Below are positions 12,300 through 61,846 of a stretch of DNA of 64,000 nucleotides, piece by piece. Numbering within the stretch: position 1 is the stretch's first letter; the number at the start of each line of letters is the position of its first letter. The stretch comes from Nanobdellota archaeon (GTDB lineage Archaea; Nanobdellota; Nanobdellia; Parvarchaeales; Parvarchaeaceae). The notes below the pieces were generated by a model. The model ran no database searches and was not told the origin of the DNA. It was given only the letters and a program-made list of their open reading frames with translations. A program made the translations under genes and the position numbers. The stretch lies in contig JAKAPK010000001.1 of the NCBI GenBank assembly GCA_021807125.1, forward strand, positions 182,354 to 246,353. Direction: 5' to 3'.

Positions 12300-12398
12300 A
12301 AAAATATAGGATGACCGATATATTTAAATATTAAGAAAAATAATATAGGATGTCCTATAATGAGATAACGAGTATTCTTATGTCGGACGGGAGGAAAT

Positions 12399-44537: not shown

Positions 44538-44664
44538 AATGTTTTTTATTAGATGTTTTTGACTATTAATAGGTTTAAGCGATGTTTTACGTTAAAATTA
44601 CTCATAGCCGTTAAGCGCATGCTGGCAGCCAATGCTATTTAAGCCACAGAACTAATAGTTTAAG

Positions 44665-45591: not shown

Positions 45592-45677
45592 ACAAAGACT
45601 GCGAACAATAAATGTTCACTTACATAAAGATAAAGTGAAAAATTAAACCGTCTTCTGGCGATGGAAAAATTGTTAAT

Positions 45678-46730: not shown

Positions 46731-46787
46731 GTAATATTTAATTATAAATTATACTTTCAGTAATAACAACACATTTTGGCGGTTTTT

Positions 46788-47090: not shown

Positions 47091-47116
47091 TTATTAGCGT
47101 TGGCATTTCATATCAG

Positions 47117-47131
47117 TAAAAGGTATAAATA
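47117..47131 (+). promoter_or_regulatory. BRE/TATA-like box
   Basis: 'aaaaggtataaatat' lies ~25-35 nt upstream of the ATG at 47156. Confidence 0.35.
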
Positions 47132-47155
47132 TCTGTAATCTTCTTCATATGATTC

Positions 47156-47509
47156 ATGGTACCATCACCTGATAAACATACTTTGGAAGGCATAATAGAA
47201 AAAGTACTTTTTAAAACTCATGAAAAATTGGGCTCTACAACGACCATAAAATTCGAAAGCCAAGTAGGGGTTGCATACATCAAGGATATTCGCGGCACCC
47301 TCCCTTTTGTTGTCGGCAATAAAGTAAGGGTTTCTTATACATATGAAAGAGACGGTGATGTGTTCCTACCAATAATAGATACTATAGATATGTACAGTAA
47401 AGATGGCGTACACCAGTTTAAAATCGATGAAATAGCTCCTTCCACTCCCCTGATTGCAGACATAGGGCGTCTCTACTCTAAACCCCTACAATTACCGCGT
47501 TCAGAGTAG
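47156..47509 (+). CDS. hypothetical protein
   Basis: 117-aa ORF; no motif. Confidence 0.45.
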   Translation: MVPSPDKHTLEGIIEKVLFKTHEKLGSTTTIKFESQVGVAYIKDIRGTLPFVVGNKVRVSYTYERDGDVFLPIIDTIDMYSKDGVHQFKIDEIAPSTPLIADIGRLYSKPLQLPRSE

Positions 47510-47554
47510 AACGCTGTAAATAGCTTAAAGATGCAACTACAATAGACATTCGCT

Positions 47555-48380
47555 ATGGAAAGTACACACAATACAAAATTCGAACTTTGGATGCCAAAGG
47601 ACAACCGTGCCTACCTTTTTGATTCTTTTTTTGAAGCGTCTTTCCCGCAAAAACTACTTGCCGATTATAAATCACATTGTAAAAGAGGATGTGAACTTGG
47701 TTTGGAAGAGATAATCAAAGGAATAAGTGCTAATCAGCCGGCAGAGAAACTCATACCAGCTATAAACGATAGAATAGAGAAGATTGACCATAGAGATGCG
47801 TCTATTTTTGCGGTTTCTTTTAAACCGAAAACTTATGGTGATGAACCTACGACTATAAATTGTTTAGGCCATGCCACCGTTTTGGTCTGTTCGCTGGAAA
47901 AAACTTGGGCGATATGACATATTAGCGGATATAAAAGTGAAAACCTCGTCGGATCACGTTTGGCTGTTTTATGATGGCGAGAGAAAATTTGATATTAATG
48001 GTTCTGGAGAATCTATATTAAGACCTTTGGAATCTCTACTTATTGGAAATTTAAACGCATGTGCGCAGAATTTGGCATCTATGGAAACGACTGGAGATGA
48101 TGAAGCACAAAAGAAAGACATAATTAAAGAAGCCCAAAAGAAGGCTGAAGAATCTCTCTCTATCGACCCAAACGAACCGTACTCTCTTGATGTAGCTGGA
48201 AAATTGTTCTGGCTTCAAGCAAAAGCAGAAAAAAATTTGGTATTTTACAATGCTGGCGTAGAATGCTTAGAGAAAGAATTCGAATCTAAAGGTCTGACAT
48301 CATCGATAAGGTTATCACTTTTAGCAGAGCTTATACAAATACGAAGCGAACGTGATAGTCTGGCAAATCAATATATTTAG
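47555..48380 (+). pseudogene. hypothetical gene split into two overlapping frames (47555-47917 and 47871-48380)
   Basis: The two ORFs overlap by 47 nt in different frames around an A6 run (47898-47903). This fits a single ~275-aa gene carrying a frameshift. Confidence 0.35.
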
Positions 48381-48592
48381 ATATACCGATTTCTTCTCTT
48401 TAACTTTAAAGTGTAAATTTTTAGTAAAAACAACAATCTTAATTCTAAGATAGCAAAGTAATTAGTTGACTAACAACGATACTAAAGCTTATAGACATTA
48501 CAAATTTATTTTATACTCTATTTTATGTGTATAATTACTGCCTTATCATATAAAGGGTTACAAAACGTCAGCGCACTAATGTAAAGTCTGGA

Positions 48593-49267
48593 TTATACCA
48601 GGGGTGCCTTTAAAACACCAAGCAAAACCCACAATGACGCAGCGACAGCTTCCGAAATAAGAAATGGCACCAAAACGGCTTCGATGCCGGCTATGACACC
48701 GTGAGACTTTCCGCGAAAGTCTATCATTGTAATAGGTATAAAGACTATAACGGAATAAACTATCCATACCACAGGAAGTTCTATAAAAATGGAAAAAGGA
48801 TTGTGAAGAAAAGCGCCTGATACAAATATCTCGTACAGTACGCCTGTAAAGGCAGAATACAGGACTGCTTCTGGTGGTGAGAATGCAAATTTTCTGCTCA
48901 CCCATAATTTCCACATGACCAGCCAAGTTAACCATGTTGCATCAATAAAAACAAGATCCACCCACAGAACTGGTTGTGCAAGCGTTCCACCCAAAATATA
49001 CACTAAGTATTCCTCTACCGACGATATAATTATTACTATGATAGAGAACCCGACTATGTTGTCTATTAATGAACCTTTAATTATGTCACGTATTCGTTCT
49101 CTAAAAAGCCATGAGGCACCGCCGAATACAACGCACCAAACAATCGCAAAATAAACAGAACTCCAGGAGCCTATAGAAGCGAGCACGGCAATAGATAAAA
49201 CGAACCAAGCAAAAATAAATCTCCAGTACCACGCAACCGCTGAGAATTTTACCAATATTTTAAACAT
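48593..49267 (-). CDS. hypothetical polytopic membrane protein
   Basis: 224 aa with ~7 hydrophobic segments. Confidence 0.5.
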   Translation of the reverse strand: MFKILVKFSAVAWYWRFIFAWFVLSIAVLASIGSWSSVYFAIVWCVVFGGASWLFRERIRDIIKGSLIDNIVGFSIIVIIISSVEEYLVYILGGTLAQPVLWVDLVFIDATWLTWLVMWKLWVSRKFAFSPPEAVLYSAFTGVLYEIFVSGAFLHNPFSIFIELPVVWIVYSVIVFIPITMIDFRGKSHGVIAGIEAVLVPFLISEAVAASLWVLLGVLKAPLV

Positions 49268-49345
49268 ATAAACCGATTTGACAGCCGCATAGCGGTATGT
49301 GTTATCTTGTTGTTATATCTTATTTAGACTTAGTATAATTTATAA

Positions 49346-49523
49346 AGAACACTACTTTCAGAAGACGTTACATAAAAATTTATTTCTGCAGTGCCATAGC
49401 CAACACAAGCCCGATAATAATCACGATCATGGCTTATTTTGCGTACAAAGAAAAATTGACGAAACTACAGGTATCCGGACTGTTATTGGCCGTCATCGGT
49501 GCAGTCATCATAAACCTGCTCTG
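49346..49523 (+). pseudogene. C-terminal fragment of a DMT/EamA- or SMR-type transporter gene
   Basis: Open frame '...YFCSAIANTSPIIITIMAYFAYKEKLTKLQVSGLLLAVIGAVIINLL*' looks like the last two TM helices of an EamA/SMR protein. It is preceded by an in-frame stop at 49343 with no N-terminal part. Confidence 0.4.
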
Positions 49524-49555
49524 ATTGAAAAACAGGTTCTAGATCTGCAGCGACC

Positions 49556-50335
49556 TTATTTGAATCCTGGTTTCCTTGAAACGTAATCATACAGTTTTAA
49601 TATGTTTCTTGGCTCGGACACAAGGTATCTCCGCCAGTAAGGCATAAGCTTCAGCTTTGTTGTCCGTAATTCCGGGTGCCCGAAGAAAGGAGGATACCTT
49701 CCGGTGTTCAGCCTGACTCTAAGCTCCTCGTCCACTGCCAGTTCAAGCAGTGCGTGGCCGACATCGTTCCTAGGCAGCTTTGAGTGTAGGATCTCGTGCC
49801 ATATATAAATAACGGAATAATTCTTGAAGTCCTCGTTGTGGCCGTAAGCGATCTCGTTGTCGCCGAGATATAATCCGTTCTTCAGGGACGGGTGGGTTAT
49901 ATACACCGTGTATGTCGTATCGAACTCGAGACCTGTGATTTCAGACATGGCGTGACTGGTTAACCTGCTTTTTTTCTCCCAGGTTTCCCGGCAGAAGTTC
50001 ATGTACACCTCGGTCTGTTTTAATATCTTTTTGAATCGCTGATTTTTCTTTATGGCGTCCATGTACGACGGCAGGCCGAGGATCGCTTTGTTCAGGACCA
50101 TGCTACTAGGCCTACCGGGCCAGACGGCGGGCTTGTCCGCACCAGACAAGAGCAAATATGATTCTTTGGATTTTTCCCAAGCATAATCCTGTAATTCAAT
50201 GATGTCGTGATTGAATTTTTTTGACGAAAACCCTATTGTGGCGGGCGTGTTGTACAAAACGTACGCTAGGAGGTAGTTTTGATCTATCACAAACCTGACG
50301 TTAGGCACGCTTGCACTCTTCTGCTCGTTACCCAT
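49556..50335 (-). CDS. hypothetical protein with HExxH motif
   Basis: 'YIWHEILHSKL'. It is the last gene before the solo TIR remnant at 50378-50407. Confidence 0.5.
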   Translation of the reverse strand: MGNEQKSASVPNVRFVIDQNYLLAYVLYNTPATIGFSSKKFNHDIIELQDYAWEKSKESYLLLSGADKPAVWPGRPSSMVLNKAILGLPSYMDAIKKNQRFKKILKQTEVYMNFCRETWEKKSRLTSHAMSEITGLEFDTTYTVYITHPSLKNGLYLGDNEIAYGHNEDFKNYSVIYIWHEILHSKLPRNDVGHALLELAVDEELRVRLNTGRYPPFFGHPELRTTKLKLMPYWRRYLVSEPRNILKLYDYVSRKPGFK

Positions 50336-50377
50336 ATTAATAATATTGAAACTACAGTTTTAAACTTTGTAAAAAGT

Positions 50378-50407
50378 AGTGCCATTTCTTTGAGATAGCA
50401 TTATCCC
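50378..50407. repeat. solo copy of the casposon right TIR (remnant of an earlier insertion)
   Basis: 'agtgccatttctttgagatagcattatccc' is 25/30 identical to 60841-60870, with the terminal 17 nt identical. It is followed by the same 14-nt target copy. Confidence 0.75.
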
Positions 50408-50421
50408 CAGATAAAACTGCC
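50408..50421. repeat. target-site duplication, left copy (CAGATAAAACTGCC)
   Basis: Perfect 14-nt direct repeat of 60871-60884, immediately outside the left TIR. Confidence 0.85.
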
Positions 50422-50474
50422 GGGATAATGCTATCTCCTCAAAATGAGACTAAAAGTTGTAAAGATTACAAGCT
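50422..50474 (+). repeat. casposon left terminal inverted repeat
   Basis: 'gggataatgctatctcctcaaaatgagactaaaagttgtaaagattacaagct' against the reverse complement of 60818-60870. 27/30 terminal nt and 46/53 overall are identical (hand alignment). Confidence 0.85.
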
Positions 50475-50543
50475 AGGTTTTTTATTATTGTATTTTTGTT
50501 CAATTACGCTTAAAAACGAATAATAACATATTATAAAGTAAAT

Positions 50544-51110
50544 ATGGCAGAAAAGCAAGTTAAAAGAGTCTTAAATCGACGCGTAGACGATAGACACTTT
50601 AAAAATAATTCGTCCGGTAGTAAGAGTCGAGCTTCGCTCTTAAAGAAAGTAAATACTGGCGGGCAATTTCCGACAAAAACATCTGGCCAAGTAACAGAAT
50701 TCGAATTTTTAGCTGGGTTTTATATGCTAGCCCCTATTTTAGTGATATTACTAATTGCATTTACGCAGTTTATCGGGTTTGTAATTTTGATTATATGTTT
50801 TATCATCATCCTTATTGTTACAAAGAAAAAGTATTCCTTAATTGTATCGATTTCATTTATATTTTGCAGCGTTCTTCTTGGACTTGCTACATTGTATTCA
50901 GCGACAAATTCAAACAATTCAATTTATACAAATTTTACGATTCCACTTTACATTGCGCTTGGGGCTACATCTTTTGTCCTTTACATAGAATATGTCATAA
51001 AAGACTTGAACGAGTTTTATAAACTGAAAGGACCCATTGCAATCCTAAAATGGAACGAGTCTATCAAGGACTATTTATTTTCGAAATATTTCCGTAAAAA
51101 AGGTCGCTAG
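50544..51110 (+). CDS. casposon-borne membrane protein
   Basis: 188 aa with a basic N-terminus and 3-4 TM segments. Confidence 0.5.
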   Translation: MAEKQVKRVLNRRVDDRHFKNNSSGSKSRASLLKKVNTGGQFPTKTSGQVTEFEFLAGFYMLAPILVILLIAFTQFIGFVILIICFIIILIVTKKKYSLIVSISFIFCSVLLGLATLYSATNSNNSIYTNFTIPLYIALGATSFVLYIEYVIKDLNEFYKLKGPIAILKWNESIKDYLFSKYFRKKGR

Positions 51111-51149
51111 ATAATTAGACTACCAAAATTAACCAACGGTTTTAAGACT

Positions 51150-53747
51150 CTATTTTTTAAGTGTTTTCTTCCACCTATAAAACGTTGCTCTAGACACACC
51201 GTGCGCTATAGCCCAGTCCAACCCCTTCTCCACAACTTCCTTTTTAAGGACCTCTTTACTCCGATATGTGACTACGCTGATTGATTCAAGACCGCTCAAG
51301 TTATGTTCAATTTTGTTAGCCTCTTTTCCGATGTAGAGTATGTTATTTGCGAAGACATGCCGTCTGTCCAGTAAACCAATCTTGTCGGTATCATCGAACT
51401 TTGCCTCGGGATGTTTTATATAGTCTAAAAGCACTTCGCTTAACGGTAACCAGTATTCCGGACCGTTATAGATCTTTCCAGTCTTATAGTCTATGAAGTC
51501 TCCATAGACCGCGCTTTGCGTATCTTTCGAATACGGTGCTATCGGTTTAATGTTTTTATTGGTTCCAAAGCCTATCAGGAAGAAGTTAAACGGCTTTATT
51601 GTAGCTTCTGGATGCTTCTTGTTATACTTAGCGAACCTTTTGAGGAGACTCGGGCTAGAGACGATAAACTGGGAAACAGCGTAATAATCTTTGTACTCCT
51701 CTATAAAATTATCTAGAGTAATCTGACCATAATGAAGTTTAAGAATATCGAGCCATATCCTTTTCTGCCATTTGGTTTCCTTGTCTCCGAATGGATTCAT
51801 CAAATGGCCCAGACCGTGCAGAGAATAGTTCTCATCGTCCTCTGATTCGTCTATTACGAACTCTCCGTTCTCGATTCGATATAGAACGTATCTTTTGGCG
51901 CTTATACCGTAAAACCATACGTCGGTTTCCTCTTCTTTCAGTAGAGAGTCTACGTTAGAATACGGATTCAGAGGGTCAAAGAACGCCTTTATTTCTTTCG
52001 TATACCTCGGAGGTACGAACATGCTGTCCGTGTCGCAATAAACTATATTTTCTCCGTGCTTCTGGAGTATGCAATCTCCGATACCCAACAGTAGTTTGGA
52101 GCCGCCGGTTATCAGCGTTGCTATTATAGGGTCGAACGATTTTCCAGGCTTTTCGAATCGGTTCTTGTCGTCAAATACCTCGCTTCCGTATACCTCCAGT
52201 TCCTCGTCATAGTCTTCTGGATTCATCTCTATGAAAATCCCGTAGCTCGTGGCGTTTGCCAGAATCTTTATTGCACGTTGTACAGAATCCAGTCTTTCAT
52301 ATTCCATGCTGCCCTTTTTCTCCTTATCGCGCAATCGTTGTATTTCCTGTCGTTTCTCTATAAGCACTTTGAACAGGTTGTCTTTTGATGGGTCTATCGT
52401 AACTCCTAATACGTCCGTAGATTTCAGTGTCTTTTGCTTTCCTACTGCATCGAATCGGATGGCCTTTACGATTTTCGGTGTCTTTCCTGTGAGCAGTTTC
52501 GATAGCACTATCTCACCCAGCGTATAATATACTGGCCGTGTCGAAGTAAGGTAATTGAACCCTACTGTAAAGGTGTCTTTGTTATATCTGGCCCTTACTG
52601 ATAACAAATCGTCGTTAGGAATTATTTTCACGATTACGTTTAGCCGTTTCCACGTCTCTAGTTTCCTTAGGTCTTCGAGAGTCACGCTCTCTACAAAATG
52701 TATAATTGCGTCGGTATCTTCGCGGTATTCTATTCTTTCAGCCGTTACAAAGTCCCATAGGCCGAGTAGTATGAACATCGTCGGGTACATAGACTTGAAG
52801 TCCAATACCGACACCTTTACAGGCTCTTTCCTTACACGGCATTCGCATCGGCCGCCATAATAGGTCTGCATTACATATCCGAGTAATTCGGGAGGAAAAT
52901 TAGGATTCGTGGCGCCAAACGAGTTTATGCCTAACTTTTCGAGACAGAATTTTCCGATTGTCGCGGATGAGTAGATCTCGTTTAAAGGTATCGGCAAGGA
53001 GTACTTCTCGAACTCTTCCCTTAGCCGCGTAAATAGCTCGGCCGTAGCTAGAGTGTCGTTTATGTTGTATTCTATATATTTTCGATTGATTTTACCGTGT
53101 TCTTTGGTCTCAAGTTTATGATAAGCCTTATTGAACATCTCACACGCACGTTTTAGATTTAGGTGTTTCTTATCCGTCAAAGTAACACCTAAGGTCTTCA
53201 AATCCACAAAGAAGCCGGGCTTGTGTTCGTAGCTCGTAGACCTGAAGTTAATGAAAGCTTGACTGGAACTGTTGTGTTTTATGCGTATCGGTGGAAACTT
53301 TCGTTCATAGTGTAGCTTCAGAGCAAATCCTCCGCGCATGCCTCTCTTTGAAGGCACTGGGTTAAATGTCGAAAGCCTGGGTAAATCAAAGGGCAAATTA
53401 AACCCTATGCAAGGAATTTGTCTTTTGTATACGTAGGGATAGAATACGTCTTCTATAAACTCGTTTAAGGCGTATAGTTTGACTATGCCATTTTCTTTGC
53501 AGTAGGCCTTTAGCTCTTTAAGCTCCTTATCCGATACTTTTGTCGGATTATAGAATAACCCTATCAATTGTACAGAATTACCAGTTTGTATCACGAACGA
53601 ACCGAACTTAAGGTCTTGAGCTTGGTCTACGGTGGTTTCTGTGTCTAGGACCAGTATCGTGCTGAAGTCCGGGATAGCTGTTTTTCTTTCATAAGGCTTG
53701 CGCTTCCGTTTAGGTACCGTGTATGCTCTGACCGCGATGTCGGTCAT
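51150..53747 (-). CDS. polB: family-B DNA polymerase (protein-primed-type, casposon PolB)
   Basis: Exo I 'LVLDTETT', exo II-like 'YNINDTLAT', motif A 'VLDFKSMYPTMF', motif B 'KILANATSYGIF' and motif C 'VYCDTDSMFV'. 865 aa. Confidence 0.9.
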   Translation of the reverse strand: MTDIAVRAYTVPKRKRKPYERKTAIPDFSTILVLDTETTVDQAQDLKFGSFVIQTGNSVQLIGLFYNPTKVSDKELKELKAYCKENGIVKLYALNEFIEDVFYPYVYKRQIPCIGFNLPFDLPRLSTFNPVPSKRGMRGGFALKLHYERKFPPIRIKHNSSSQAFINFRSTSYEHKPGFFVDLKTLGVTLTDKKHLNLKRACEMFNKAYHKLETKEHGKINRKYIEYNINDTLATAELFTRLREEFEKYSLPIPLNEIYSSATIGKFCLEKLGINSFGATNPNFPPELLGYVMQTYYGGRCECRVRKEPVKVSVLDFKSMYPTMFILLGLWDFVTAERIEYREDTDAIIHFVESVTLEDLRKLETWKRLNVIVKIIPNDDLLSVRARYNKDTFTVGFNYLTSTRPVYYTLGEIVLSKLLTGKTPKIVKAIRFDAVGKQKTLKSTDVLGVTIDPSKDNLFKVLIEKRQEIQRLRDKEKKGSMEYERLDSVQRAIKILANATSYGIFIEMNPEDYDEELEVYGSEVFDDKNRFEKPGKSFDPIIATLITGGSKLLLGIGDCILQKHGENIVYCDTDSMFVPPRYTKEIKAFFDPLNPYSNVDSLLKEEETDVWFYGISAKRYVLYRIENGEFVIDESEDDENYSLHGLGHLMNPFGDKETKWQKRIWLDILKLHYGQITLDNFIEEYKDYYAVSQFIVSSPSLLKRFAKYNKKHPEATIKPFNFFLIGFGTNKNIKPIAPYSKDTQSAVYGDFIDYKTGKIYNGPEYWLPLSEVLLDYIKHPEAKFDDTDKIGLLDRRHVFANNILYIGKEANKIEHNLSGLESISVVTYRSKEVLKKEVVEKGLDWAIAHGVSRATFYRWKKTLKK

Positions 53748-54040
53748 ATTGTCTTCTTCAACTTTTCAAGCGCTCTTCGTTTTATTCTTGTCCCTACAGT
53801 ATCGAGCAATCCAGCTATTGAGATTTCTTCATAAGCGTCTTTTTCAATCTGACTTGCATTCTTACTTCTGGCTTTAGGAGAGATGCCATTCTGCTCTGTA
53901 GTTATCTTATCATGGCAGTTGTGGCAGAGCCAAACGGTTTCCGGGCTATTGTTTCTCCCGAACACGTGATGCTCTTCCTTGATAACTCTCGGGTCGTCTT
54001 CACCACAGATAGCGCAGGGCGGCTTAGTCGTATATCTCTC
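53744..54040 (-). CDS. HNH endonuclease (open frame lacks an in-frame start for its N-terminal half)
   Basis: The frame reads '...KPPCAICGEDDPRVIKEEHHVFGRNNSPETVWLCHNCHDKIT'. This gives CxxC...HH...N...CxxC-H, i.e. HNH. The first start codon (GTG at 53965) lies after the CxxC and HH. 4-nt overlap with the polB start. Confidence 0.6.
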   Translation of the reverse strand, partial: ERYTTKPPCAICGEDDPRVIKEEHHVFGRNNSPETVWLCHNCHDKITTEQNGISPKARSKNASQIEKDAYEEISIAGLLDTVGTRIKRRALEKLKKTI

Positions 54041-54518
54041 CTAACTCGTGCTCTTCACGTCGTAGTTCTATCTCCTGTATTTTGGTAGGGTCCGTTTCAA
54101 GATGATGGGTTTTGCCGTAAATATTCTTGATTCTGGTCCGTTTGTATTTTTTCAGTGCACGCCAATCACCAGAGTACAGGCCCTTCTTCACATCATTATA
54201 GTACCGGCCTATTATCGCAGCCTGCTTAGAGCCTTTAACGATTACCGTTCGTCTCCGACCGTTTTCGTATATTATCAGTTCTCTCTCCAAGGTATCGGAC
54301 TTTTTCGCACGCCACTTACGCTTGCATTTGTATAAGACGGACCCCAAATTATGTCTAACGGTGTCCGGCTTTAGACCCAACTCTCCGGATGCTCTTGTAA
54401 GCGACTTGCCCTCGCGGATTAACCTTAGCACATCGAGCGATTTTACTCTCAAAGCTCTCTCTTCTTTCGATAGCTTAAGCCAGCGTTTGATATGCCGATG
54501 TTTCCGTCGTTTCACCAT
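54024..54518 (-). CDS. casposon HTH DNA-binding protein
   Basis: Basic N-terminus, then 'GKSLTRASGELGLKPDTVRHNL', a resolvase/terminase-type HTH. 164 aa. Confidence 0.6.
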   Translation of the reverse strand: MVKRRKHRHIKRWLKLSKEERALRVKSLDVLRLIREGKSLTRASGELGLKPDTVRHNLGSVLYKCKRKWRAKKSDTLERELIIYENGRRRTVIVKGSKQAAIIGRYYNDVKKGLYSGDWRALKKYKRTRIKNIYGKTHHLETDPTKIQEIELRREEHELGEIYD

Positions 54519-54833
54519 TTACTGTTGGCCACCCCCACGTCGTCTAAAAAGGACCACCAGTATAATGGCCAGCACGGCACCACCTAATCCCAGCCAACCC
54601 CAACTAGAAGATGAATGGCGTTCGGCGATTTCTCTACTACCATCAGAGGGTCGATCCTCTGCTGGTAGCGATTCAACCACTGGTGCGGCATCGCTTACAG
54701 TAGCTGCTTGTTCTACCGGTTCGCTTTCTGGTTCCGGCAGCGCTTGGCCGCGATGAAACCTGCTTTTGTGCACGCGATAGCTTGCACCACTCTTAAACTC
54801 CTTCCCGTCAAACGGGCATATTCTTATGGACAT
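54519..54833 (-). CDS. C2H2 zinc-finger protein with C-terminal TM anchor
   Basis: 'CPFDGKEFKSGASYRVHKSRFH' (C-x2-?..H-x5-H type) and C-terminal 'WGWLGLGGAVLAIILVVLF'. The ATG at 54833 is preceded by GAGGTGA; the track ORF extends to 54902. Confidence 0.55.
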   Translation of the reverse strand: MSIRICPFDGKEFKSGASYRVHKSRFHRGQALPEPESEPVEQAATVSDAAPVVESLPAEDRPSDGSREIAERHSSSSWGWLGLGGAVLAIILVVLFRRRGGGQQ

Positions 54834-54879
54834 ATATTTCACCTCAAAAGTAAATCTACGTTTGTCAGATAATGTTATC

Positions 54880-54931
54880 GTATTACCTCCAAGAAAAATC
54901 AAGATATTTATTAGGGGTAATGTATTACCTC
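54880..54931. promoter_or_regulatory. divergent-promoter region with direct repeat GTATTACCTC x2
   Basis: gtattacctc occurs at 54880-54889 and 54922-54931, each preceded by (t)aatgt. It lies between the divergent starts at 54833 (-) and 54935 (+). A TATA-like 'gatatttatta' sits at ~54902. Confidence 0.35.
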
Positions 54932-54934
54932 TTT

Positions 54935-55942
54935 ATGACATTGACGAGAGAAGAAAAGAAAATCGTGGCATTTTTAGAAGCCAGTAAAGATGCTGGTAGG
55001 TCTTCTGAAGAAATCGCAGCGCGATTGGATTTAGCCAAGAAAAACATTCTAAAGAAAGTCAATAGATTGAAGGCCTTAAACATAGTGTCAAAATTCGGTA
55101 CTACTAGAGTAGTTCGTTATCGTCTAAGTAAGTATGACCCGGAGGAGGTTCAGAAAACAAAGATGTACCGACTTATTAAAAGTACCGAAACGCGCAGAAA
55201 GCAGGAAGACAAAAAACGGTATAAAGATAATGCAGAATTTCGTTCATATCTACTAAGCAGTCTAGATTCGTTTCTGATACAGATTTCGCACGTTTTAGAT
55301 TGTGATTTAAAGACGTTAGAAGTGACTATAGACGATGAAGAAACTTTCAAAAAACTGGTGCTGCATGCTAAGATGCGATCACTGTCAAAAAATATCTTAT
55401 TCGCGATAAATGATTATTTAAAAGAGGGGCTTAAAGAGGCGTTAACACGACCACATGCCCAGATAGAGGTATACGAACAGAAGATGATTAAAAACATCTT
55501 AGATGAAATAGATTATTGCGCGCCAAATCTAAATCATAAAGCTTGTTATGATGCAATTGAAATACATATAGATCCAAGGTATGAAGACCTTTCATTTTCA
55601 GAGGAGCTTAAAAACTTTGTGAATGGCGATGACCGAAACAGTTTATGGGATAAAGAAATAAGAGATGCGCTTAATAGCTATGGTGTTATTCTAAGCGAGT
55701 TTATCAAATATTTAGACGGTATAAAGATTGCACATAAGATAAGCAGCTCTGGCCTCGAAATACTTTTCGATGCAGATGATCTGGAACATTGGATACGAAA
55801 CTTAAGGGAGACTCTCAGTCATATTATTAAAATGGCTCTTGAGCTCAAGTATTTTTTAGACAAAATGCAAAAGGAGCAGGGACAATTCAGAAAGCGTGGA
55901 AAAGTCTTGAAATATAAAGTAGAGACGCTTACTTCTCTTTAG
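54935..55942 (+). CDS. winged-helix (MarR/ArsR-like) DNA-binding protein with long C-terminal domain
   Basis: 'LTREEKKIVAFLEASKDAGRSSEEIAARLDLAKKNILKKVNRLKALNIVSKFGTTRVVRYRL' is a wHTH. The start is taken at the internal ATG; the track ORF begins at 54872. Confidence 0.6.
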   Translation: MTLTREEKKIVAFLEASKDAGRSSEEIAARLDLAKKNILKKVNRLKALNIVSKFGTTRVVRYRLSKYDPEEVQKTKMYRLIKSTETRRKQEDKKRYKDNAEFRSYLLSSLDSFLIQISHVLDCDLKTLEVTIDDEETFKKLVLHAKMRSLSKNILFAINDYLKEGLKEALTRPHAQIEVYEQKMIKNILDEIDYCAPNLNHKACYDAIEIHIDPRYEDLSFSEELKNFVNGDDRNSLWDKEIRDALNSYGVILSEFIKYLDGIKIAHKISSSGLEILFDADDLEHWIRNLRETLSHIIKMALELKYFLDKMQKEQGQFRKRGKVLKYKVETLTSL

Positions 55943-56066
55943 GTCGGTCCCAATATGGACTATGGCATTTTGGGCAAAGTGGTGGCTTAACCCTTTTTCT
56001 AGGCGTCCACTTATGACCGCACCTATTGCATAGATACCCCTTTACTTGAATAGTTGTCTCCGGCAT
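55929..56066 (-). CDS. small zinc-ribbon protein (45 aa)
   Basis: Not in the track: MPETTIQVKGYLCNRCGHKWTPRKRVKPPLCPKCHSPYWDRPKEK, with two CxxC pairs. Convergent 14-nt overlap with the preceding gene. Confidence 0.5.
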   Translation of the reverse strand: MPETTIQVKGYLCNRCGHKWTPRKRVKPPLCPKCHSPYWDRPKEK

Positions 56067-56091
56067 GCAAACTTATTTCATTTTTAATATT

Positions 56092-56106
56092 AAAAGTTTA
56101 TATATT
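56092..56106 (+). promoter_or_regulatory. TATA-like box upstream of cas1
   Basis: 'aaaagtttatatatt' lies ~26-40 nt upstream of the ATG at 56132. Confidence 0.35.
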
Positions 56107-56131
56107 ATCTAATACTTATTAGTTAATACGT

Positions 56132-57361
56132 ATGAGACCACTATTGTTATCTGGGTTTGGTATAAACGTTATCGTTAGCGGTAGAAAGCTCGTTATCGAA
56201 AATCATCAGACTAACGAAATATCAGAGTTTTATCCTCATCAGATACCTTATGATAATGTTATTATAGATGGCTACTATGGTCTGATTTCATTTGAGGCCC
56301 TCAGATGGTTATCAAAGCACGGTATAGGAATTACGCTCCTTAATTGGGATGGTAATTTGTTATCGGTGACAACACCCAAAGAGCCGATTGCTGGAAAACT
56401 GAAAATAAAACAATACAAAACGTATCTTGATAAAGAAAAAAGATATACTATTGCGTATAAGATTATAGAACAAAAGATAGGTAAATCGTATGAATTGCTA
56501 TCTTTGTTATCAAACTTCTATAACTCTATTAATATGAAAGAAATGAAAGCTATCTTTGATAACGAATTACGTAATTTTGATAACAATTCTAAGAGAATTT
56601 CGTTATCTGATAACGAAAACATCAAAGAACGTATAAGAAACGTAATGTCATATGAAGGAAGGATAGCTGATTATTATTGGAAAACGTTATCAAAAGTCTT
56701 CAATAGGCTATATCCAGAGTTTCCTTTCAAAAGAAGAAATAATTCATTAGACTCTCATAACAGAAACGCTTCAGATTATATCAATGCGTTATTGAATTAC
56801 GGGTATGCCATACTAGAAAGCGTTATCCGAAGGGATATTAATGTTATCGGACCGGATCCCGACATCGGCTTCTTACACGAGATTGCTACCAGTAAACAAC
56901 CATTAGTCTATGATTTACAAGAATTATATAGATGGCTGATAGATTTGAGCGTTATCCAGCTTCTTGAAGACAAAAAGTTGCGTAAGTCTGACTTTATTGT
57001 TACAGAGAATTACCATTTACGTCTTAGGGAGTCGGGTATCAAGTATCTTGTAGAGAAGATTGCGTCTAATATGAATAAACTCGCATTATACAGAGGAAAA
57101 CGTTACACATTTGATACTATCTTACTGAATAACGTCCGAAATTTAGCAAAATGCATAGAAAAAGATGAGAATAACGTTAGCTTTGAGGTCCCTAAGATTG
57201 AAAGCTATCGAAATGATAAGTTTGAATTACGTAATCGGATAATGTCGATAACGCCTGAAGAGCGTAAGAAATTAGGTATCAACAAGAGTACGCTCTGGTA
57301 TCAGCAAAAAGCTATAAAAGAGAACAGAAAAATAAAGGTATACAACAAAGTTCAAAAATAA
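56132..57361 (+). CDS. cas1: Cas1 homolog with C-terminal HTH (casposase)
   Basis: N-terminal beta domain 'LLLSGFGINVIVSGRKLVIEN...VIIDGYYGLISFEALRWLSKHGIGITLLNWDG'. Catalytic-region motifs 'MSYEGRIADYYW', 'NALLNYGYAILES' and 'GFLHEIATSKQPLVYDLQELYRWLID'. C-terminal 'RKKLGINKSTLWYQQKAI' HTH. Confidence 0.88.
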   Translation: MRPLLLSGFGINVIVSGRKLVIENHQTNEISEFYPHQIPYDNVIIDGYYGLISFEALRWLSKHGIGITLLNWDGNLLSVTTPKEPIAGKLKIKQYKTYLDKEKRYTIAYKIIEQKIGKSYELLSLLSNFYNSINMKEMKAIFDNELRNFDNNSKRISLSDNENIKERIRNVMSYEGRIADYYWKTLSKVFNRLYPEFPFKRRNNSLDSHNRNASDYINALLNYGYAILESVIRRDINVIGPDPDIGFLHEIATSKQPLVYDLQELYRWLIDLSVIQLLEDKKLRKSDFIVTENYHLRLRESGIKYLVEKIASNMNKLALYRGKRYTFDTILLNNVRNLAKCIEKDENNVSFEVPKIESYRNDKFELRNRIMSITPEERKKLGINKSTLWYQQKAIKENRKIKVYNKVQK

Positions 57362-57363
57362 CT

Positions 57364-57573
57364 TTATTTATTTAGCCTAGAAGCAATTATCCATTGATTT
57401 TGTCTGCCTATCTTGAAGTATTTTACTTTCCCTTCTTGCTGTAATTTGAATAAGTGCATCTGGGCGGTATACCATGCTGTTTTAGTTGCTTTACCTACCA
57501 TCTCGGTGGTCGCAGAAAACGGTATACTTCTAAGATAGTCTAAAATTTTCCTATCAATTTCTGAGTCTTTCAT
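57364..57573 (-). CDS. small winged-helix DNA-binding protein
   Basis: 69 aa: 'RKILDYLRSIPFSATTEMVGKATKTAWYTAQMHLFKLQQEGKVKYFKIGRQNQW'. Confidence 0.55.
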   Translation of the reverse strand: MKDSEIDRKILDYLRSIPFSATTEMVGKATKTAWYTAQMHLFKLQQEGKVKYFKIGRQNQWIIASRLNK

Positions 57574-57639
57574 ACGTTATCTGTATTATACAATGTATTG
57601 TATAATCGGATTTAAATATATTTAGTTGCCTTACATAAT

Positions 57640-60030
57640 ATGGCTAAACGCAAAAAATCAACGAAATTTCCGTTAGCTTCTAAATGTCTGTTTATAATAA
57701 TCATTGCTGTTGTGATAGTTGCGACAACTTTAGCGATTTTATTTGTTAATAATGGGGGTCAGAATCAGCAAACAACAAAAATACTTGGCAGGATTACTTC
57801 GGTAGCATTAAATAGTAATTATTCAACGGCGCATCATATTAGTTACGTTGGCTCTTTCAGTGGTTTTGATTATAGCTCTGGGGCAACAGAAAGATATACG
57901 CTAAACATAACAAATAATGGAAATCGTTCAATAATTATTAACAACGTTTATACAAATACGCCGCTTTTTAATATTACAAATTTTATCGCTCCGTTTATAA
58001 TAGCACCCGGCATAACAAAGAGTATAATTTTAGCCATACAAACTCCAAAGATTTCTTATAATGGGACATTGGTTTTGTTATATAGCTACTCGTTCACTCT
58101 CATTACTATTACAAATTCTTCTGGATCATCAAATAATCAGTCTTCTGGTGGCACGACCAAAAATAACTCATCTAGTTCGTTGAGTTCTTGTTATATAACA
58201 GGAGGGAATTCTTCATACTACGGTACAACCGTACTAGCGCAGGGGGGACAAACATGCGCATTACAGCCGAATTATCATGAAACTCTCGGATTTACAACTT
58301 ATGGTCCAACAGAATTATCAGGTACGTTCTCAACAAATAATAACACGGTAAGCGTATACGTTCTAAGCCAAAGTGAATACAATGCTTTCGAATCTGGTGG
58401 AAGTATTACTTCTTACCAGTGTACCTTGGGAAGTGTAATAACCGGTTCCTTTAATTGTGAAGTTCCAGCAGGTCAGTGGTATCCAGTTATTATAAACTAT
58501 GGCTCTCAAACTAGTCAGATAACATTTACGTCAAATGTAACAGTTGGTTATGTTGCGTATACTGAAACCTCGCCATGGACGATAGTTACTTCGAATACAA
58601 ATTGGCAAATCTCTCAAGGTCGTTATTATTATGAGTGGTTTCAATTGAATAATGCAGCATTAATAACTGGCAGCTTTTCTAGCTCTGGAAATGTAGAGGG
58701 ATATATAATGAACTATTCAGAACTGGAAGCGTTCAATTCAACTGGTAAACCAACCAATTATTATTGTACAGTCGGTACAGTAACTACAGGAGTAATTGGT
58801 TGTGAGCTTGGCATAGGAACGTGGTATCTAGTTCTTGATAATCCAAGTACTTATAATAGCACAAGTGTAAATTGGATAAATCCACTCTCAGCTTATTATT
58901 TGTTAGAAGGCACTACGAACAATGCCTTGTATGATGAGCAATTTGGTCTTACATTCGTAGATAATTTCAACGTTTTAACATACAATGTAACGGCAACAGC
59001 ACAAACAGATCCAAGTGGCTTAGGACCGGGATATCTTCTGAATGGGCTCTCGAATACAGGGTATTGGTACCAAATAGGCGTTTCCTATAACTGGGCGGAT
59101 GGCACACAACATGAAAACGGCTTTTATGCAAATTATGAGGTGTTTAATCCTAGCGGGACGAGTATTTACCCTTATGGTGGTGGCGGAGGACTAAGCTCCT
59201 TTTCTGGACCGGTTTATAATGGTGATACTATAACGTTGACGCTTTACTTTTCAAGCGGCAATGTAATAATGAGTGCAACGGACTTGAATACTGGAGCATA
59301 TGCTAGTTTTTCTTACAATGCTGAAGGCGCAGACGAATTTGTAGGAAATCCAACATCTACGAGTACCAATGGTTTCTTTACAGGACTTATGACTGAATGG
59401 TATCATGTTTTACCATGGTATGGTCCAGGCGATCTAGTCACTTATAATCCATATGGTAGTATCAGCTCACCGGCGTGGCTATGGGTCGACGAGTTCTACT
59501 GTTATTCTTCAAGCTGTTCGGGTCAGAATAACAATATACAATTATTTTCGAACGCGACTATAAATTCCGTATATCCAGAATATACGTTTAATTCAAATGC
59601 GGCACTTTTGAAGTACTTAACAAATGGAGAATTTACAACGGGCCTGCAAAGTTCCAGTACTCAATCCTCTGGAGGTAGCGGATCTGGTAGCGTACTTAAT
59701 GTATCTAGCTACGGTTCTTGTGGTAATTTTGAAATTAGTGAAAATTCTGCAAACCAGGCTAAATTAGGGCAATGTACATGGAGTGGCGGCAATATTACAG
59801 TTACTGATAATGAAGGACAGTTCCAAGGCGCAACTGTATGGATTAATAGCACCGGATCTCCGAACAATATTTACATCTTAGATCAAAGCGTATATGACTA
59901 TCCTTCATGTAGCACGGACTCTAAGTCATACTATTTCCCTGCAGGGACTTATAACGTTTACATAAAAACAAAGTCTACAGGCGCTTCTTGTGCAAATAGT
60001 TATGCTTATGTAGACTTAAGTGTTACTTAA
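57640..60030 (+). CDS. large secreted/anchored Asn/Ser/Thr-rich protein with tandem beta-rich repeats (casposon cargo)
   Basis: N-terminal 'KKSTKFPLASKCLFIIIIAVVIVATTLAILF' signal/anchor and dozens of N-x-S/T sequons. Internal ~70-aa repeat (…VYVLSQSEYNAFESGGSITSYQCTLGSVITGSFNCEVPAGQWYPVIINYG / …GYIMNYSELEAFNSTGKPTNYYCTVGTVTTGVIGCELGIGTWYLVLDNPS). A later region 'GYLLNGLSNTGYWYQIGVSY...GLMTEWYHV' is reminiscent of G1/thermopsin-like beta-sandwich peptidases (weak). Confidence 0.6.
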   Translation: MAKRKKSTKFPLASKCLFIIIIAVVIVATTLAILFVNNGGQNQQTTKILGRITSVALNSNYSTAHHISYVGSFSGFDYSSGATERYTLNITNNGNRSIIINNVYTNTPLFNITNFIAPFIIAPGITKSIILAIQTPKISYNGTLVLLYSYSFTLITITNSSGSSNNQSSGGTTKNNSSSSLSSCYITGGNSSYYGTTVLAQGGQTCALQPNYHETLGFTTYGPTELSGTFSTNNNTVSVYVLSQSEYNAFESGGSITSYQCTLGSVITGSFNCEVPAGQWYPVIINYGSQTSQITFTSNVTVGYVAYTETSPWTIVTSNTNWQISQGRYYYEWFQLNNAALITGSFSSSGNVEGYIMNYSELEAFNSTGKPTNYYCTVGTVTTGVIGCELGIGTWYLVLDNPSTYNSTSVNWINPLSAYYLLEGTTNNALYDEQFGLTFVDNFNVLTYNVTATAQTDPSGLGPGYLLNGLSNTGYWYQIGVSYNWADGTQHENGFYANYEVFNPSGTSIYPYGGGGGLSSFSGPVYNGDTITLTLYFSSGNVIMSATDLNTGAYASFSYNAEGADEFVGNPTSTSTNGFFTGLMTEWYHVLPWYGPGDLVTYNPYGSISSPAWLWVDEFYCYSSSCSGQNNNIQLFSNATINSVYPEYTFNSNAALLKYLTNGEFTTGLQSSSTQSSGGSGSGSVLNVSSYGSCGNFEISENSANQAKLGQCTWSGGNITVTDNEGQFQGATVWINSTGSPNNIYILDQSVYDYPSCSTDSKSYYFPAGTYNVYIKTKSTGASCANSYAYVDLSVT

Positions 60031-60052
60031 CTCGTCAGATAACGTTCCTTCA

Positions 60053-60781
60053 CTATAAAGGCAGTTTATTGTTTAACATTAGAATAGCCGAATAAAAGAG
60101 ATTTACGGCCCCCAACAACACAAAACTCACTCCAAAGACGTTTATGATATAATTATCTCCTAGACCGACCGCAGTAAATAAACTAAGAAGTATCGCAAAA
60201 AGAAAAAACTCGGCAGTGGCCAGTAATGAGGTAAATTTAACTCTTAACAGTGGCGGATTCATATTACTCGAAGCAAAGGCTATCGAAGTGATAATAAGCG
60301 CGAATGAACCCAGCTCAAAATAATTGGTGGGCGAAAATGGCAGAATTATATTATTCGTCGGCACACTTACTGCAAGCACATAAATCAAGAATACAAAACC
60401 AAGAAGCATGACGATTTGTGATAAAATCAATTTCCAATAAGCTACTTGTCGTTCCTCCATTATCTTGAGTTGAGTCGCAAAGCCAAATAAGATAATACAC
60501 CCTCCAAAAAATAAGAAAATTAGGAATATTACTGGAGTTAAAAACTCTGTGTTTAGATGAAACCAAGAAAAGATAAATATTGTTAATATTGGAAGAAACG
60601 AGAAAATTATATATATCACAATCCCTAGAAATACCAGCTTACCGAGAGACGTTCTAGCAATCCAACCATAGACTTCGTGCCCGCACTTTGGACACAACCC
60701 ACTCGAAGTGTTTGTCGGGTCGCATTCGCATGCGCAAGCCACTTTATTTTTTGTCGGATAGATTACACATCTTTTACACAT
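60053..60781 (-). CDS. membrane protein with N-terminal Cys-rich zinc-ribbon
   Basis: 'MCKRCVIYPTKNKVACACECDP...GLCPKCGHEVYGW' followed by ~6 TM segments. Confidence 0.5.
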   Translation of the reverse strand: MCKRCVIYPTKNKVACACECDPTNTSSGLCPKCGHEVYGWIARTSLGKLVFLGIVIYIIFSFLPILTIFIFSWFHLNTEFLTPVIFLIFLFFGGCIILFGFATQLKIMEERQVAYWKLILSQIVMLLGFVFLIYVLAVSVPTNNIILPFSPTNYFELGSFALIITSIAFASSNMNPPLLRVKFTSLLATAEFFLFAILLSLFTAVGLGDNYIINVFGVSFVLLGAVNLFYSAILMLNNKLPL

Positions 60782-60817
60782 GGCATATACAAGACGATAC
60801 GTTACTTATATAATTTA

Positions 60818-60870
60818 AGTTTGTAATCTTTACAAGAATTAGTCTCATTTTAGTGAGATAGCATTATCCC
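60818..60870 (-). repeat. casposon right terminal inverted repeat
   Basis: The reverse complement 'gggataatgctatctcactaaaatgagactaattcttgtaaagattacaaact' pairs with 50422-50474. Confidence 0.85.
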
Positions 60871-60884
60871 CAGATAAAACTGCC
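60871..60884. repeat. target-site duplication, right copy (CAGATAAAACTGCC)
   Basis: Identical to 50408-50421. Its last 4 nt (tgcc) are the reverse complement of the tRNA-Arg(GCG) 3' end (GGCA). Confidence 0.85.
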
Positions 60885-60954
60885 CCCGGCCGGATTTGAA
60901 CCAGCGTCTTCGCCTCCGCAGGGCAATGTTCTGTCCAAGCTAGACTACGGGAGC
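60881..60954 (-). tRNA. tRNA-Arg(GCG)
   Basis: Reverse complement has acceptor gctcccg/cgggggc (one G-U) plus a, anticodon arm ttgcc-ctGCGga-ggcga, and T arm gctgg-ttcaaat-ccggc. Confidence 0.85.
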
Positions 60955-60955
60955 T

Positions 60956-61846
60956 TTACTCATACACTGTCAACCCCATCTCCATTGCAGTCTTTTTTAT
61001 AGCCTCTATTCGTTTCTCCAGAGACGGATGGGTTGAAAATAAGTTCGTAATACTGTGCGTTGAGAGGTTGTTTACGATGAATAAAGATGAAAATGATGCT
61101 GCCTGGGGATTCGGTCTGGAAACATTTCTGGGCTGTGAGTTTACCGATACACTGCTTATTTTTTTCAATGAAGATATGAGTTCGTTAGGTTTTTTTACCA
61201 GTTTTACAGACCCAACATCCGCGTACGACTCCCGGCTTCGCGATATACCTAGCTGCACGAACATCGCACCGATAGGTATGAGTATCGCTGATAAAATCAC
61301 AAGAAAACCAAGGTTGTTGTCGTTACTGTTATTGAAAAGCATGGAAAAAAGCATTATGTTCCCTATGTAAGACACTATCGTTGCAATCGAGGCAGCAATT
61401 GTCGTTACGAGGATGTCTCTGTGCGTGACGTGGCTTATCTCATGCCCTATAACTGCTTCCAGCTCTTTATCATCCAACATCTTGAGTATACTAGAAGTGG
61501 CAACAACAACTGCGTGTTTCTCGTCTCTGCCAGTAGCGAATGCGTTCGGTACGGAGGAGTCCATTATTCCTATCTTCGGCATCGGTATCCCAGCCTCTTC
61601 CGATACCTTTTTAACAACGTTATAAAGTCTGGGATTTTCGCTTTTGGACGTGATCCGCGATCGAGTCAGCCTAAGCGCTATGGTATCACTCTTAAAATAG
61701 AAAAACACGTTCAGGCCGATTGCAAATATGAACATAGCTCCCATTATTAGGTATGGGCTGCCAAAGAACAATCCGAGCACGCCGCCCATAGCAACCATAA
61801 AAAGCGCTAACAGCGTAAAAAGCAGTACTATCTTAAACAATGCCAT
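60956..61846 (-). CDS. htpX: HtpX-family M48 zinc metalloprotease
   Basis: 'AVIGHEISHVTHRD' HExxH, four TM segments and 'THPSLEKRI' near the C-terminus. Confidence 0.88.
   Translation of the reverse strand: MALFKIVLLFTLLALFMVAMGGVLGLFFGSPYLIMGAMFIFAIGLNVFFYFKSDTIALRLTRSRITSKSENPRLYNVVKKVSEEAGIPMPKIGIMDSSVPNAFATGRDEKHAVVVATSSILKMLDDKELEAVIGHEISHVTHRDILVTTIAASIATIVSYIGNIMLFSMLFNNSNDNNLGFLVILSAILIPIGAMFVQLGISRSRESYADVGSVKLVKKPNELISSLKKISSVSVNSQPRNVSRPNPQAASFSSLFIVNNLSTHSITNLFSTHPSLEKRIEAIKKTAMEMGLTVYE

Follow-up and report, generated by a model that had tools for sequence, protein, structure and literature searches.

A probable family-2 casposon at the tRNA-Arg(GCG) gene of a Parvarchaeota-like archaeon and its empty-site alleles

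Introduction

Casposons are the presumed ancestors of the adaptation machinery of CRISPR systems, and to our knowledge the evidence for their natural movement comes almost entirely from Methanosarcina strains. Here we describe a 64-kb stretch of archaeal DNA (contig JAKAPK010000001.1 of assembly GCA_021807125.1, positions 182,354 to 246,353), referred to as the window throughout, in which a block at positions 50422-60870 is very likely an autonomous or near-autonomous family-2 casposon of a Parvarchaeota-like (DPANN) archaeon. The block sits at the 3' end of a tRNA-Arg(GCG) gene, and the same site is empty in three other assemblies.

The closest described systems belong to family 2, which was defined by a Cas1 with a helix-turn-helix domain (Cas1-HTH), a similar HTH in the DNA polymerase of family B (PolB), a five-gene core and targets that overlap the last 4-7 nucleotides (nt) of tRNA genes (PMC4046053). 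One member, AciBoo-C1 of Aciduliprofundum boonei T469 (NC_013926, 380320-389403; locus L010 of this study), is the source of the casposase and of the target rules established in vitro (PMC6614799, PMC5137440). Mutagenesis of the A. boonei target demonstrated that the casposase depends on two things, a TCAAATC motif located 9-15 bp upstream of the insertion point and the first two bases of the target-site duplication (TSD) (PMC6614799), and the minimal target consists of the TSD and the 18 bp coding for the T-psi-C loop (PMC5137440). In addition, inversion between the two terminal inverted repeats (TIRs) was seen in E. coli assays (PMC5137440). Further members of the family are the casposons of Methanosarcina (MetMaz-C1 and the tandem Met2HT1A3 elements; PMC4779613) and MetArv-C1 of Methanocella arvoryzae MRE50 (PMC4046053). 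A review of 2023 still describes family 2 as euryarchaeal, no casposon of DPANN or Parvarchaeota was described in the literature searched, and a host range within DPANN seems undocumented. As related casposons from DPANN metagenomes we included L012-L014 (JGI 3300034091 and others) and L015 (ENA ERZ27236996).

Results

Element Ends and Target tRNA

The block comprises 10,449 bp (60870-50422+1) and is bounded by TIRs of 53 nt (Table 1). Aligned without gaps, the left TIR and the reverse complement of the right one agree at 46 of 53 positions (87%), while 92% identity over the first 50 nt is reached if gaps are allowed. Both termini open with GGGATAATGCTATCTC, and the 16-nt TIR terminus occurs in three exact copies in the window versus 0.59 expected even at three mismatches. 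The 14-mer CAGATAAAACTGCC is found without mismatch at only two sites of the 64 kb, directly outside the two TIRs. ARAGORN places tRNA-Arg(GCG) on the minus strand such that the right TSD copy covers the final 4 nt of the gene (GGCA), with the TIR terminus 10 nt past the end of that gene. The block ends and the duplication are far beyond chance. All of these features had been proposed in an original prediction made from the letters alone, and each of them was reproduced by computation: the length of the block, the TIR coordinates and match counts, the perfect TSD, the overlap with the tRNA and the offset of the TIR, as well as position, strand and length of the open reading frames (ORFs) for Cas1 and PolB.

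Table 1. Coordinates of the casposon block, its flanks and its predicted genes in the window (aa, amino acids; wHTH, winged HTH).
Feature	Coordinates	Strand	Basis or remark
Solo TIR X, remnant of an older casposon of a different lineage	50358..50407	-	terminus GGGATAATGCTATCTC points to the tRNA; abuts the left TSD
Left (tRNA-distal) TSD copy CAGATAAAACTGCC	50408..50421	+	exact 14-mer; single copy in empty alleles
Left TIR	50422..50474	+	repeat finder
188-aa predicted membrane protein	50544..51110	+	translation; no Pfam, NCBIfam or PADLOC match
DNA polymerase of family B, CDTDS type of casposons, 865 aa, C-terminal HTH-like tail	51150..53747	-	PF00136
HNH endonuclease reading frame (CAICG...HHVFGRNNSPETVWLCHNCH)	53744..54040	-	homologous to the 104-aa HNH of L012 and the 144-aa HNH of AciBoo-C1
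164-aa HTH protein, family-2 core gene	54024..54518	-	40% to 190-aa protein of AciBoo-C1, 51% to 170-aa protein of L012; weak HTH_29
127-aa small protein, C-terminal transmembrane segment (gene callers: 104-aa form)	54519..54902	-	42% to 105-aa protein of L012
335-aa protein (356-aa ORF from 54872), N-terminal wHTH-like and all-helical	54935..55942	+	positional equivalent of the family-2 HTH-HEAT protein
Cas1 casposase, 409 aa, family-2 C-terminal HTH	56132..57361	+	PF01867, 177 bits; 6OPM, 245 bits
69-aa winged-helix protein	57364..57573	-	PF04703 (FaeA-like), 23.2 bits, cutoff 20.7
796-aa Ser/Thr/Asn-rich protein, N-terminal transmembrane or signal segment	57640..60030	+	translation
242-aa protein, N-terminal Cys-rich (Zn-ribbon-like) segment and multiple transmembrane helices	60053..60781	-	translation
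Right TIR	60818..60870	-	repeat finder
Right (tRNA-proximal) TSD copy	60871..60884	+	last 4 nt are the tRNA 3' end GGCA
tRNA-Arg(GCG), target or 'leader'	60881..60954	-	T-loop TCAAATC at 60893-60899, -15 to -9 from the TSD

Empty Sites in Near-identical Genomes

Our search for empty sites employed the exact protein of the M48 peptidase gene (60956-61846), the host gene beside the tRNA, and retrieved contigs of other assemblies, from the same organism or a very closely related one. Three of these assemblies carry an empty locus (L003, GCA_027370795.1; L006, GCA_021788735.1; L007, ENA ERZ27233565). Here a 259-aa ORF, which in the window sits beyond the block, comes directly after the peptidase gene and the tRNA, and on both sides the flanks are 98.9-99.6% identical to the window (megablast). 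The junction is the same in 3/3 assemblies, namely ...GAGATAGCATTATCCC followed by CAGATAAAACTGCC and by CCCGGCCGG of the tRNA, with one copy of the 14-mer. Arranged as solo TIR, one 14-mer and tRNA, the empty alleles lack exactly 10,463 bp, that is, the element and one TSD copy, and they carry strain-specific single-nucleotide polymorphisms (SNPs) in both flanks. The element interior was recovered a second time, with 100% identity, in a 7.7-kb contig (L001) that comes from another assembly of sample SRR13206618.

Since these empty sites are precise and the genomes near-identical, the element is a discrete unit whose gain or loss is very recent, and it either is mobile or was so until recently. 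The recent mobility that had been suggested from the well-kept ends is thereby borne out directly, and the comparison with close genomes proposed at that time did yield the empty tRNA-Arg(GCG) site.

The direction of the change deserves attention. If the filled state were ancestral in the population, the empty alleles would be secondary losses, caused either by precise excision through the casposase or by homologous recombination. A substrate for the latter exists: the 64-nt direct repeat D1 (50358-50421 and 60821-60884, 83%) includes a perfectly identical stretch of 31 nt, composed of TIR end and 14-mer (50391-50421 and 60854-60884), and recombination between its copies would give the same product. 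Excision is documented as well, as the M. mazei casposon excised in vivo leaves a single, footprint-free target (PMC10359463), just like the empty alleles found here. However, three of the sampled assemblies are empty, while only the population of the window is demonstrably filled, which makes a recent gain more economical. Furthermore, the casposon copies are 100% identical, and excision frequencies in M. mazei are very low, at 1e-5 to 1e-9 (PMC10359463). We thus consider ancestral filling with later loss to be the less likely course, at perhaps a quarter of the weight, and favor a recent gain.

The Cas1 Casposase

The profile search proposed for Cas1 gave a clear match to PF01867 (Table 1). 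Among PDB chains the best match is 6OPM, which covers residues 1-399, versus 90 bits for the best other Cas1 chain. We take 6OPM to be the M. mazei casposase, which is consistent with PMC6977970. The Cas1 of A. boonei (P0109), one of more than 1,300 homologs of the window protein, is 55% identical over the full length. Invariant between the window protein, A. boonei and other relatives are the catalytic residues E175, H249 and D261/E264 and the block GINKSTLWY of the C-terminal HTH. Residues 286-408 of Cas1 match the C-terminus (735-859) of the L012 PolB with E = 2e-8, and no direct similarity between Cas1 and PolB of the window was detected at E <= 1e-3.

Could this Cas1 be a CRISPR adaptation enzyme, or could the block be an ordinary tRNA-targeting element of the tyrosine-integrase type that merely carries cas1 and polB? 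Both Pfam and NCBIfam do label the family 'CRISPR-associated endonuclease Cas1', and tRNA 3' ends are classic att sites. Yet every subtype-specific CRISPR model of NCBIfam stays far under its cutoff, with scores of 40-103 bits against cutoffs of 120-560, and the match to 6OPM spans an HTH domain that is absent from CRISPR Cas1 (PMC4046053). In agreement with the original prediction, no tandem (CRISPR) array was found in the 64-kb window, and neither cas2 nor any other cas family was present among the ORFs scanned; Pfam and NCBIfam gave no integrase family for the ORFs of the block, and none was seen in the window. Finally, the block is bounded by inverted repeats and a 14-bp TSD instead of the long direct repeats of att sites. 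We therefore regard both explanations as extremely improbable, and a casposase within a casposon is the reading that we retain.

The closest named relatives of the casposase come from Micrarchaeota, Marsarchaeota, Thaumarchaeota and Aciduliprofundum, and in public annotation many close homologs from the first three groups are labeled Cas1. A scan of representative genomes with the window protein returned one partial relative only, from a Nanoarchaeota metagenome-assembled genome; the source genome of the window itself is not a GTDB representative. The three closest relatives overall (P0001-P0003, 491-580 aa; loci L015, L016 and L019) carry insertions in the linker that joins the N-terminal domain to the catalytic one. 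The insertion of P0001 comprises about 80 aa, the protein being otherwise 68-75% identical to the window Cas1, and those of P0002 and P0003 are probably longer, judged by length only. We considered an intein or an extra domain as an explanation for the insertion of about 80 aa and rejected it in favor of a variable linker. At two other loci (L017 and L018) a Cas1-HTH of 62% identity (P0004) occurs without a full-length PolB nearby and with DDE transposases of the insertion sequence (IS) type inside; a tRNA-Gln lies at the edge of the region and the M48 peptidase gene about 9 kb away. This region is probably a decayed or IS-invaded casposon.

PolB, HNH and the Other Core Genes

In the translation of PolB the motifs Exo I-III and A, B and C are readable, and motif C reads YCDTDS, the signature that names the divergent 'PolB_CDTDS' cluster to which the polymerase of the A. 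boonei casposon belongs (PMC7544198). The protein is 41% identical to the PolB of AciBoo-C1 over about 850 aa and 49% identical to that of L012 over nearly the full length. Upstream of polB, the HNH frame contains a complete CxxC...HH...N...CxxCH motif, and its stop overlaps the polB start (ATGA). With the end of the 164-aa ORF upstream, the frame shares 17 nt, in the +1 frame. The 127-aa small protein occupies the same gene position as its L012 homolog of 105 aa, but the C2H2 finger assigned to it originally was not recovered, as neither Pfam nor NCBIfam gave a family match. For the 335-aa protein, weak matches to the wHTH families Sta1 and Csa3 were obtained; its AlphaFold2 model is all-helical with a predicted local distance difference test score (pLDDT) of 64, and a single homolog was found in 5.8 billion clusters.

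The window, L012, L015, L019 and AciBoo-C1 have their genes in one common order, PolB(-), HNH(-), HTH(-), small(-), HTH-helical(+), Cas1(+). Taken together, the features that define the casposon superfamily are all present: a Cas1 without cas2 or array in the window, a PolB, TIRs with TSD, and presence/absence at an otherwise identical locus. Among those of family 2, the C-terminal HTH of Cas1, the CDTDS-type PolB, the 164-aa HTH gene, and the 4-nt tRNA overlap with a 14-bp TSD are present; less certain are the HNH gene and the second HTH protein, for which a C-terminal HEAT/helical domain is expected. Features of a CRISPR-Cas adaptation module or of a tyrosine/serine-recombinase element were not found. 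The family-2 assignment of the original prediction thus holds, based on Cas1-HTH, the CDTDS PolB, TIRs, TSD and collinearity with AciBoo-C1. As to the host, SRP54 of the window is 68-72% identical to proteins of Candidatus Parvarchaeota / Parvarchaeum ARMAN-4 and ARMAN-5, and we consequently consider it a Parvarchaeota-like DPANN archaeon.

Several points weigh against the reading of the block as an autonomous, recently mobile family-2 casposon. The placement of Cas1 in the family-2 clade would follow from score gaps, the HTH fusion and gene context. The profile search for PolB did return PF00136, though at 24.1 bits and just over the cutoff of 23, so that Pfam support alone is marginal. The 335-aa protein has no significant similarity to its positional equivalents, and Foldseek found no fold match for it (best PDB E-value 0.08, to generic helical bundles). 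In the HNH frame no ATG, GTG or TTG precedes the catalytic motif; the called ORF of 73 aa opens at GTG 53965, the only canonical start, which lies inside the motif, and an ACG is present at 54031-54029 where relatives have ATG. Loss of the start codon, a non-canonical start or frameshifting could explain this anomaly. Given that no canonical start is available, it may be that one of the core proteins is not produced at full length. The proposed translational coupling of HNH and polB would fit the overlap of stop and start. The description as intact-looking fits the full-length Cas1 and PolB with their motifs, the TIRs and the TSD, but not the HNH gene. With regard to mobility, the evidence for filled and empty alleles consists of assembled contigs. 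Moreover, sequence cannot tell empty alleles that precede an insertion from those that follow a loss: in view of the clean single-site excision in M. mazei, never-inserted and excised alleles look the same.

Some of these points would fit a different scenario, in which a decaying, non-autonomous casposon is fixed at the site and the polymorphism is an assembly artefact of the repeated TIR and TSD. The HNH gene without canonical start is in line with decay, and two Logan contigs (L004 and L005) end inside the right TIR, exactly at the end of the repeated 31-mer, so the repeat does disturb assemblies at k=31. However, L007 and L008 are MEGAHIT-style 'k141' contigs, and from the logic of de Bruijn assembly a false join at a 31-nt repeat is impossible at k=141. 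The identical empty junction was furthermore obtained in three independent assemblies with strain-specific SNPs in both flanks, and both Cas1 and PolB retain their full length and every catalytic motif. An artefact at a decayed element is thus very improbable, and an autonomous or near-autonomous casposon with true empty alleles is still the reading to be preferred.

Cargo Genes

The cargo is made up of the 796-aa protein, the two membrane proteins of 188 and 242 aa and the winged-helix protein of 69 aa. Downstream of cas1, the 796-aa protein is presumed from its translation to be a secreted or surface cargo protein. No family match was obtained for it; in the L012 casposon, a 547-aa cargo protein matches its residues 431-677, a domain of about 250 aa, at 50% identity. 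An AlphaFold model of this conserved domain, calculated without alignment, was unusable (pLDDT 39). The 242-aa protein had no match in Pfam, NCBIfam or PADLOC. When the cargo was scanned with PADLOC, no defence system was found, the weak matches being confined to the 356-aa wHTH ORF and a methyltransferase (MTase) outside the element.

Comparison with Known Casposons

The element has its core gene order in common with AciBoo-C1, to which its Cas1-HTH is 55%, its PolB 41% and its HTH protein 40% identical. Both share a TIR that opens with GGG(G)ATA, a TSD of 14-15 bp overlapping the tRNA 3' end, and TCAAATC at -15 to -9. In contrast, AciBoo-C1 targets tRNA-Pro with a TSD opening CCCA, while that of the window element opens GGCA; its TIRs are 40 nt long and 95% identical, compared to 53 nt and 87% here; its cargo is a 967-aa MTase/restriction endonuclease instead of surface and membrane proteins; and its host is a thermoacidophilic euryarchaeon and not a member of DPANN.

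The Methanosarcina casposons likewise have a 14-nt TSD and tRNA 3'-end targets, and for them tandem integration with shared TSD, solo TIRs and strain-level presence/absence polymorphism were reported in 2016, along with both orientations at one tRNA site, the tRNA-Leu of M. mazei (PMC4779613). They differ from the window element in their tRNA-Leu or intergenic targets with an invariant CGCA in place of GGCA and in their methanogen hosts, and the window Cas1 is substantially diverged in the 6OPM alignment. Tandem site reuse, solo TIRs, 14-nt TSDs and both orientations are therefore already published (PMC4779613). Nor is the target new. It had been argued that a tRNA-Arg target would make this a new variant, but MetArv-C1 (NC_009464, 2695218-2709760), a family-2 casposon, was listed with a tRNA-Arg target and a 14-nt TSD in 2014 (Krupovic et al., 2014; PMC4046053, Table S1), and thus the novelty argument fails. 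MetArv-C1 differs by its size of 14.5 kb and its TIRs of 134 nt.

Closer relatives are found among the DPANN metagenome casposons. L012 occupies the orthologous tRNA-Arg(GCG), likewise with the M48 peptidase gene as neighbor. It has a Cas1 of 64% and a PolB of 49% identity and shares the domain of the 796-aa cargo protein, but its orientation to the tRNA is reversed. L015 has a Cas1 of 75% identity and the same target geometry, while its target is tRNA-Glu(TTC). The cargo of L012-L015 differs from that of the window and includes a C5 MTase, MmeI-like restriction-modification and M78 peptidase/DUF4411. Two features of L012 were seen besides, at 11723-12653 and 12164-12199: another TIR copy directly after the right TSD (tandem), and long imperfect inverted repeats formed by this region, with arms of up to 162 nt at 81%.

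Target Recognition

We compared five target sites (n=5) on the tRNA sense strand. They read TCAAATC-CGGGCGGC-CCCACTACGAGGAG-TIR for AciBoo-C1 (tRNA-Pro), TCAAATC-CGGCCGGG-GGCAGTTTTATCTG-TIR for Arg(GCG) of the window, TCAAATC-CTGTCGAG-GGCAGTAATCTTTT-TIR for Arg(TCT) of the window, TCAAATC-CGGTCGGG-GGCAAATATTATG(G)-TIR for Arg(GCG) of L012, and TCAAATC-CCGGTCGG-GGCAATTCGAGAAA-TIR for the intron-bearing tRNA-Glu(TTC) of L015. The geometry of TCAAATC, 8 nt, TSD and TIR is identical at 5/5 sites, and within the subclade of the window Cas1 the TSD always opens with GGCA (tRNA positions 70-73). The tRNA-Lys and tRNA-Ser genes of the window also contain TCAAATC; they end in CCCA and GCGC, and both are unoccupied. 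Because L015 as the closest relative resides at tRNA-Glu, arginine identity would not be the determinant, and we infer that insertion depends on the T-loop motif together with GGCA.

Regarding the detection of such targets, ARAGORN in default mode misses intron-bearing archaeal tRNAs: the tRNA-Glu of L015 (2921-3009) was found only with introns allowed (-i). The A. boonei target (L010, 5023-5144), a tRNA-Pro according to the literature, received no default call, and with introns allowed was called as tRNA-Leu with a 47-nt intron. An Rfam scan of the L015 junction gave no match.

Solo TIRs and Surroundings of the Element

Directly left of the left TSD lies a solo TIR (X; Table 1) in the same orientation as the right TIR. 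It is kept in all empty alleles and must therefore be older than the resident element. Over 50 nt it is 84% identical to the TIR of L015, compared to 72-78% for the resident TIRs, which marks it as the relic of a different casposon lineage. The target site has thus served for two insertions or more, and the newer element occupies the tRNA-proximal position.

A search for the left partner of X in 42.9-50.3 kb gave best local alignments not above shuffled controls. A second casposon bounded at 43.8-50.4 kb was consequently rejected, as no partner end of X stood out from the shuffled background. Between the conserved bestrophin and aldehyde-dehydrogenase genes and X there is a variable island (43800-50340; GC content about 0.37) that combines uncharacterized ORFs with a GNAT acetyltransferase and a DNA methyltransferase (45678-46730; PADLOC matches to mad2 and type II MTase). 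The syntenic stretch of L012 contains entirely different genes, and a tblastx comparison between L012 and the island left of X yielded nothing. The island may be decayed cargo of the older casposon. No paralogy was found between the proteins of the element and neighboring ORFs of the window.

A second solo TIR, GGGATAGTGCTATCTACCGAAAAGTGTACA, is situated at 32362-32391 (minus), exactly 10 nt from the 3' end of tRNA-Arg(TCT) (32402-32476). It shows the TCAAATC-N8-GGCA geometry also present at tRNA-Arg(GCG) and adjoins three ORFs without family matches (30341-32304). For this solo TIR, Y, best local alignments to a partner in 22.9-32.3 kb were again not above shuffled controls, and no polymorphism was detected at the site, where relatives are identical. 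Two further TIR-like relics, at 6456-6485 and about 7253-7282 (both minus), have the core CCGAAAAGTGTA in common with the tRNA-Arg(TCT) solo TIR. They flank a 177-aa ORF (6557-7090), and their position is not that of a tRNA 3' end (tRNA-Lys: end at 6337).

Another arrangement was seen in L015 (15050-15135 and 2921-3060). There the right TIR of the 12.1-kb casposon at tRNA-Glu(TTC) contains a 20-nt copy of the 3' end of that tRNA; behind a 10-nt spacer there follows a TIR terminus with 84% identity to solo TIR X. A complete junction of tRNA end, target and TIR is thus carried inside the end of another element. A metagenome scan with the exact 16-nt TIR terminus hit at least 120 loci; among the matches listed all were chance, with TIR identity downstream at background level and no tRNA-like flank. 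The other larger ORFs of the window encode archaeal housekeeping proteins (among them PGK, GAPDH, FtsZ, eIF2-gamma, exosome, proteasome, SRP54, CofD).

Discussion

Based on the biochemistry of the A. boonei and M. mazei enzymes, the following course of events can be envisioned. The casposase would bind the TIR ends and read the T-loop motif TCAAATC 9-15 bp upstream together with the first TSD bases GGCA. The two 3'-OH ends of the element would then be joined to the two strands at points 14 bp from each other, and repair of the gaps would duplicate these 14 bp and restore the tRNA's 3' end. Since each insertion would rebuild the target beside the tRNA, the site would be reusable. The newest element would come to lie next to the tRNA, while the older casposon relic (solo TIR 50358-50407) would be pushed outward. 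PolB presumably copies the element.

One might speculate further, although we give the idea little credence. The lineage may read a generic code of T-loop TCAAATC, 8 nt and GGCA, hop among tRNA genes (Arg-GCG, Arg-TCT and Glu-TTC being occupied or scarred) and always reload in the tRNA-proximal position. Stacks of TIR relics with 14-nt units, anchored at tRNA genes, might then form, in a DPANN episymbiont with a reduced genome, a counterpart in nature to the leader-proximal growth of CRISPR. The element might even pass back and forth between DPANN cells and the hosts of these, and cell-cell attachment might be influenced by its large surface-protein cargo.

The locus represents a second, independent natural case of casposon movement, with an exact filled/empty pair, outside Methanosarcina and in a DPANN host with a small genome. 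The target rule derived in vitro, that is, the T-loop motif at -15 to -9 and the first bases of the TSD, holds across casposases of 55% identity and across different tRNAs, and the leader-proximal polarity of repeated insertion becomes visible in nature. Taken together, the locus provides useful confirmations and a clean substrate for in vitro work rather than a new mechanism.

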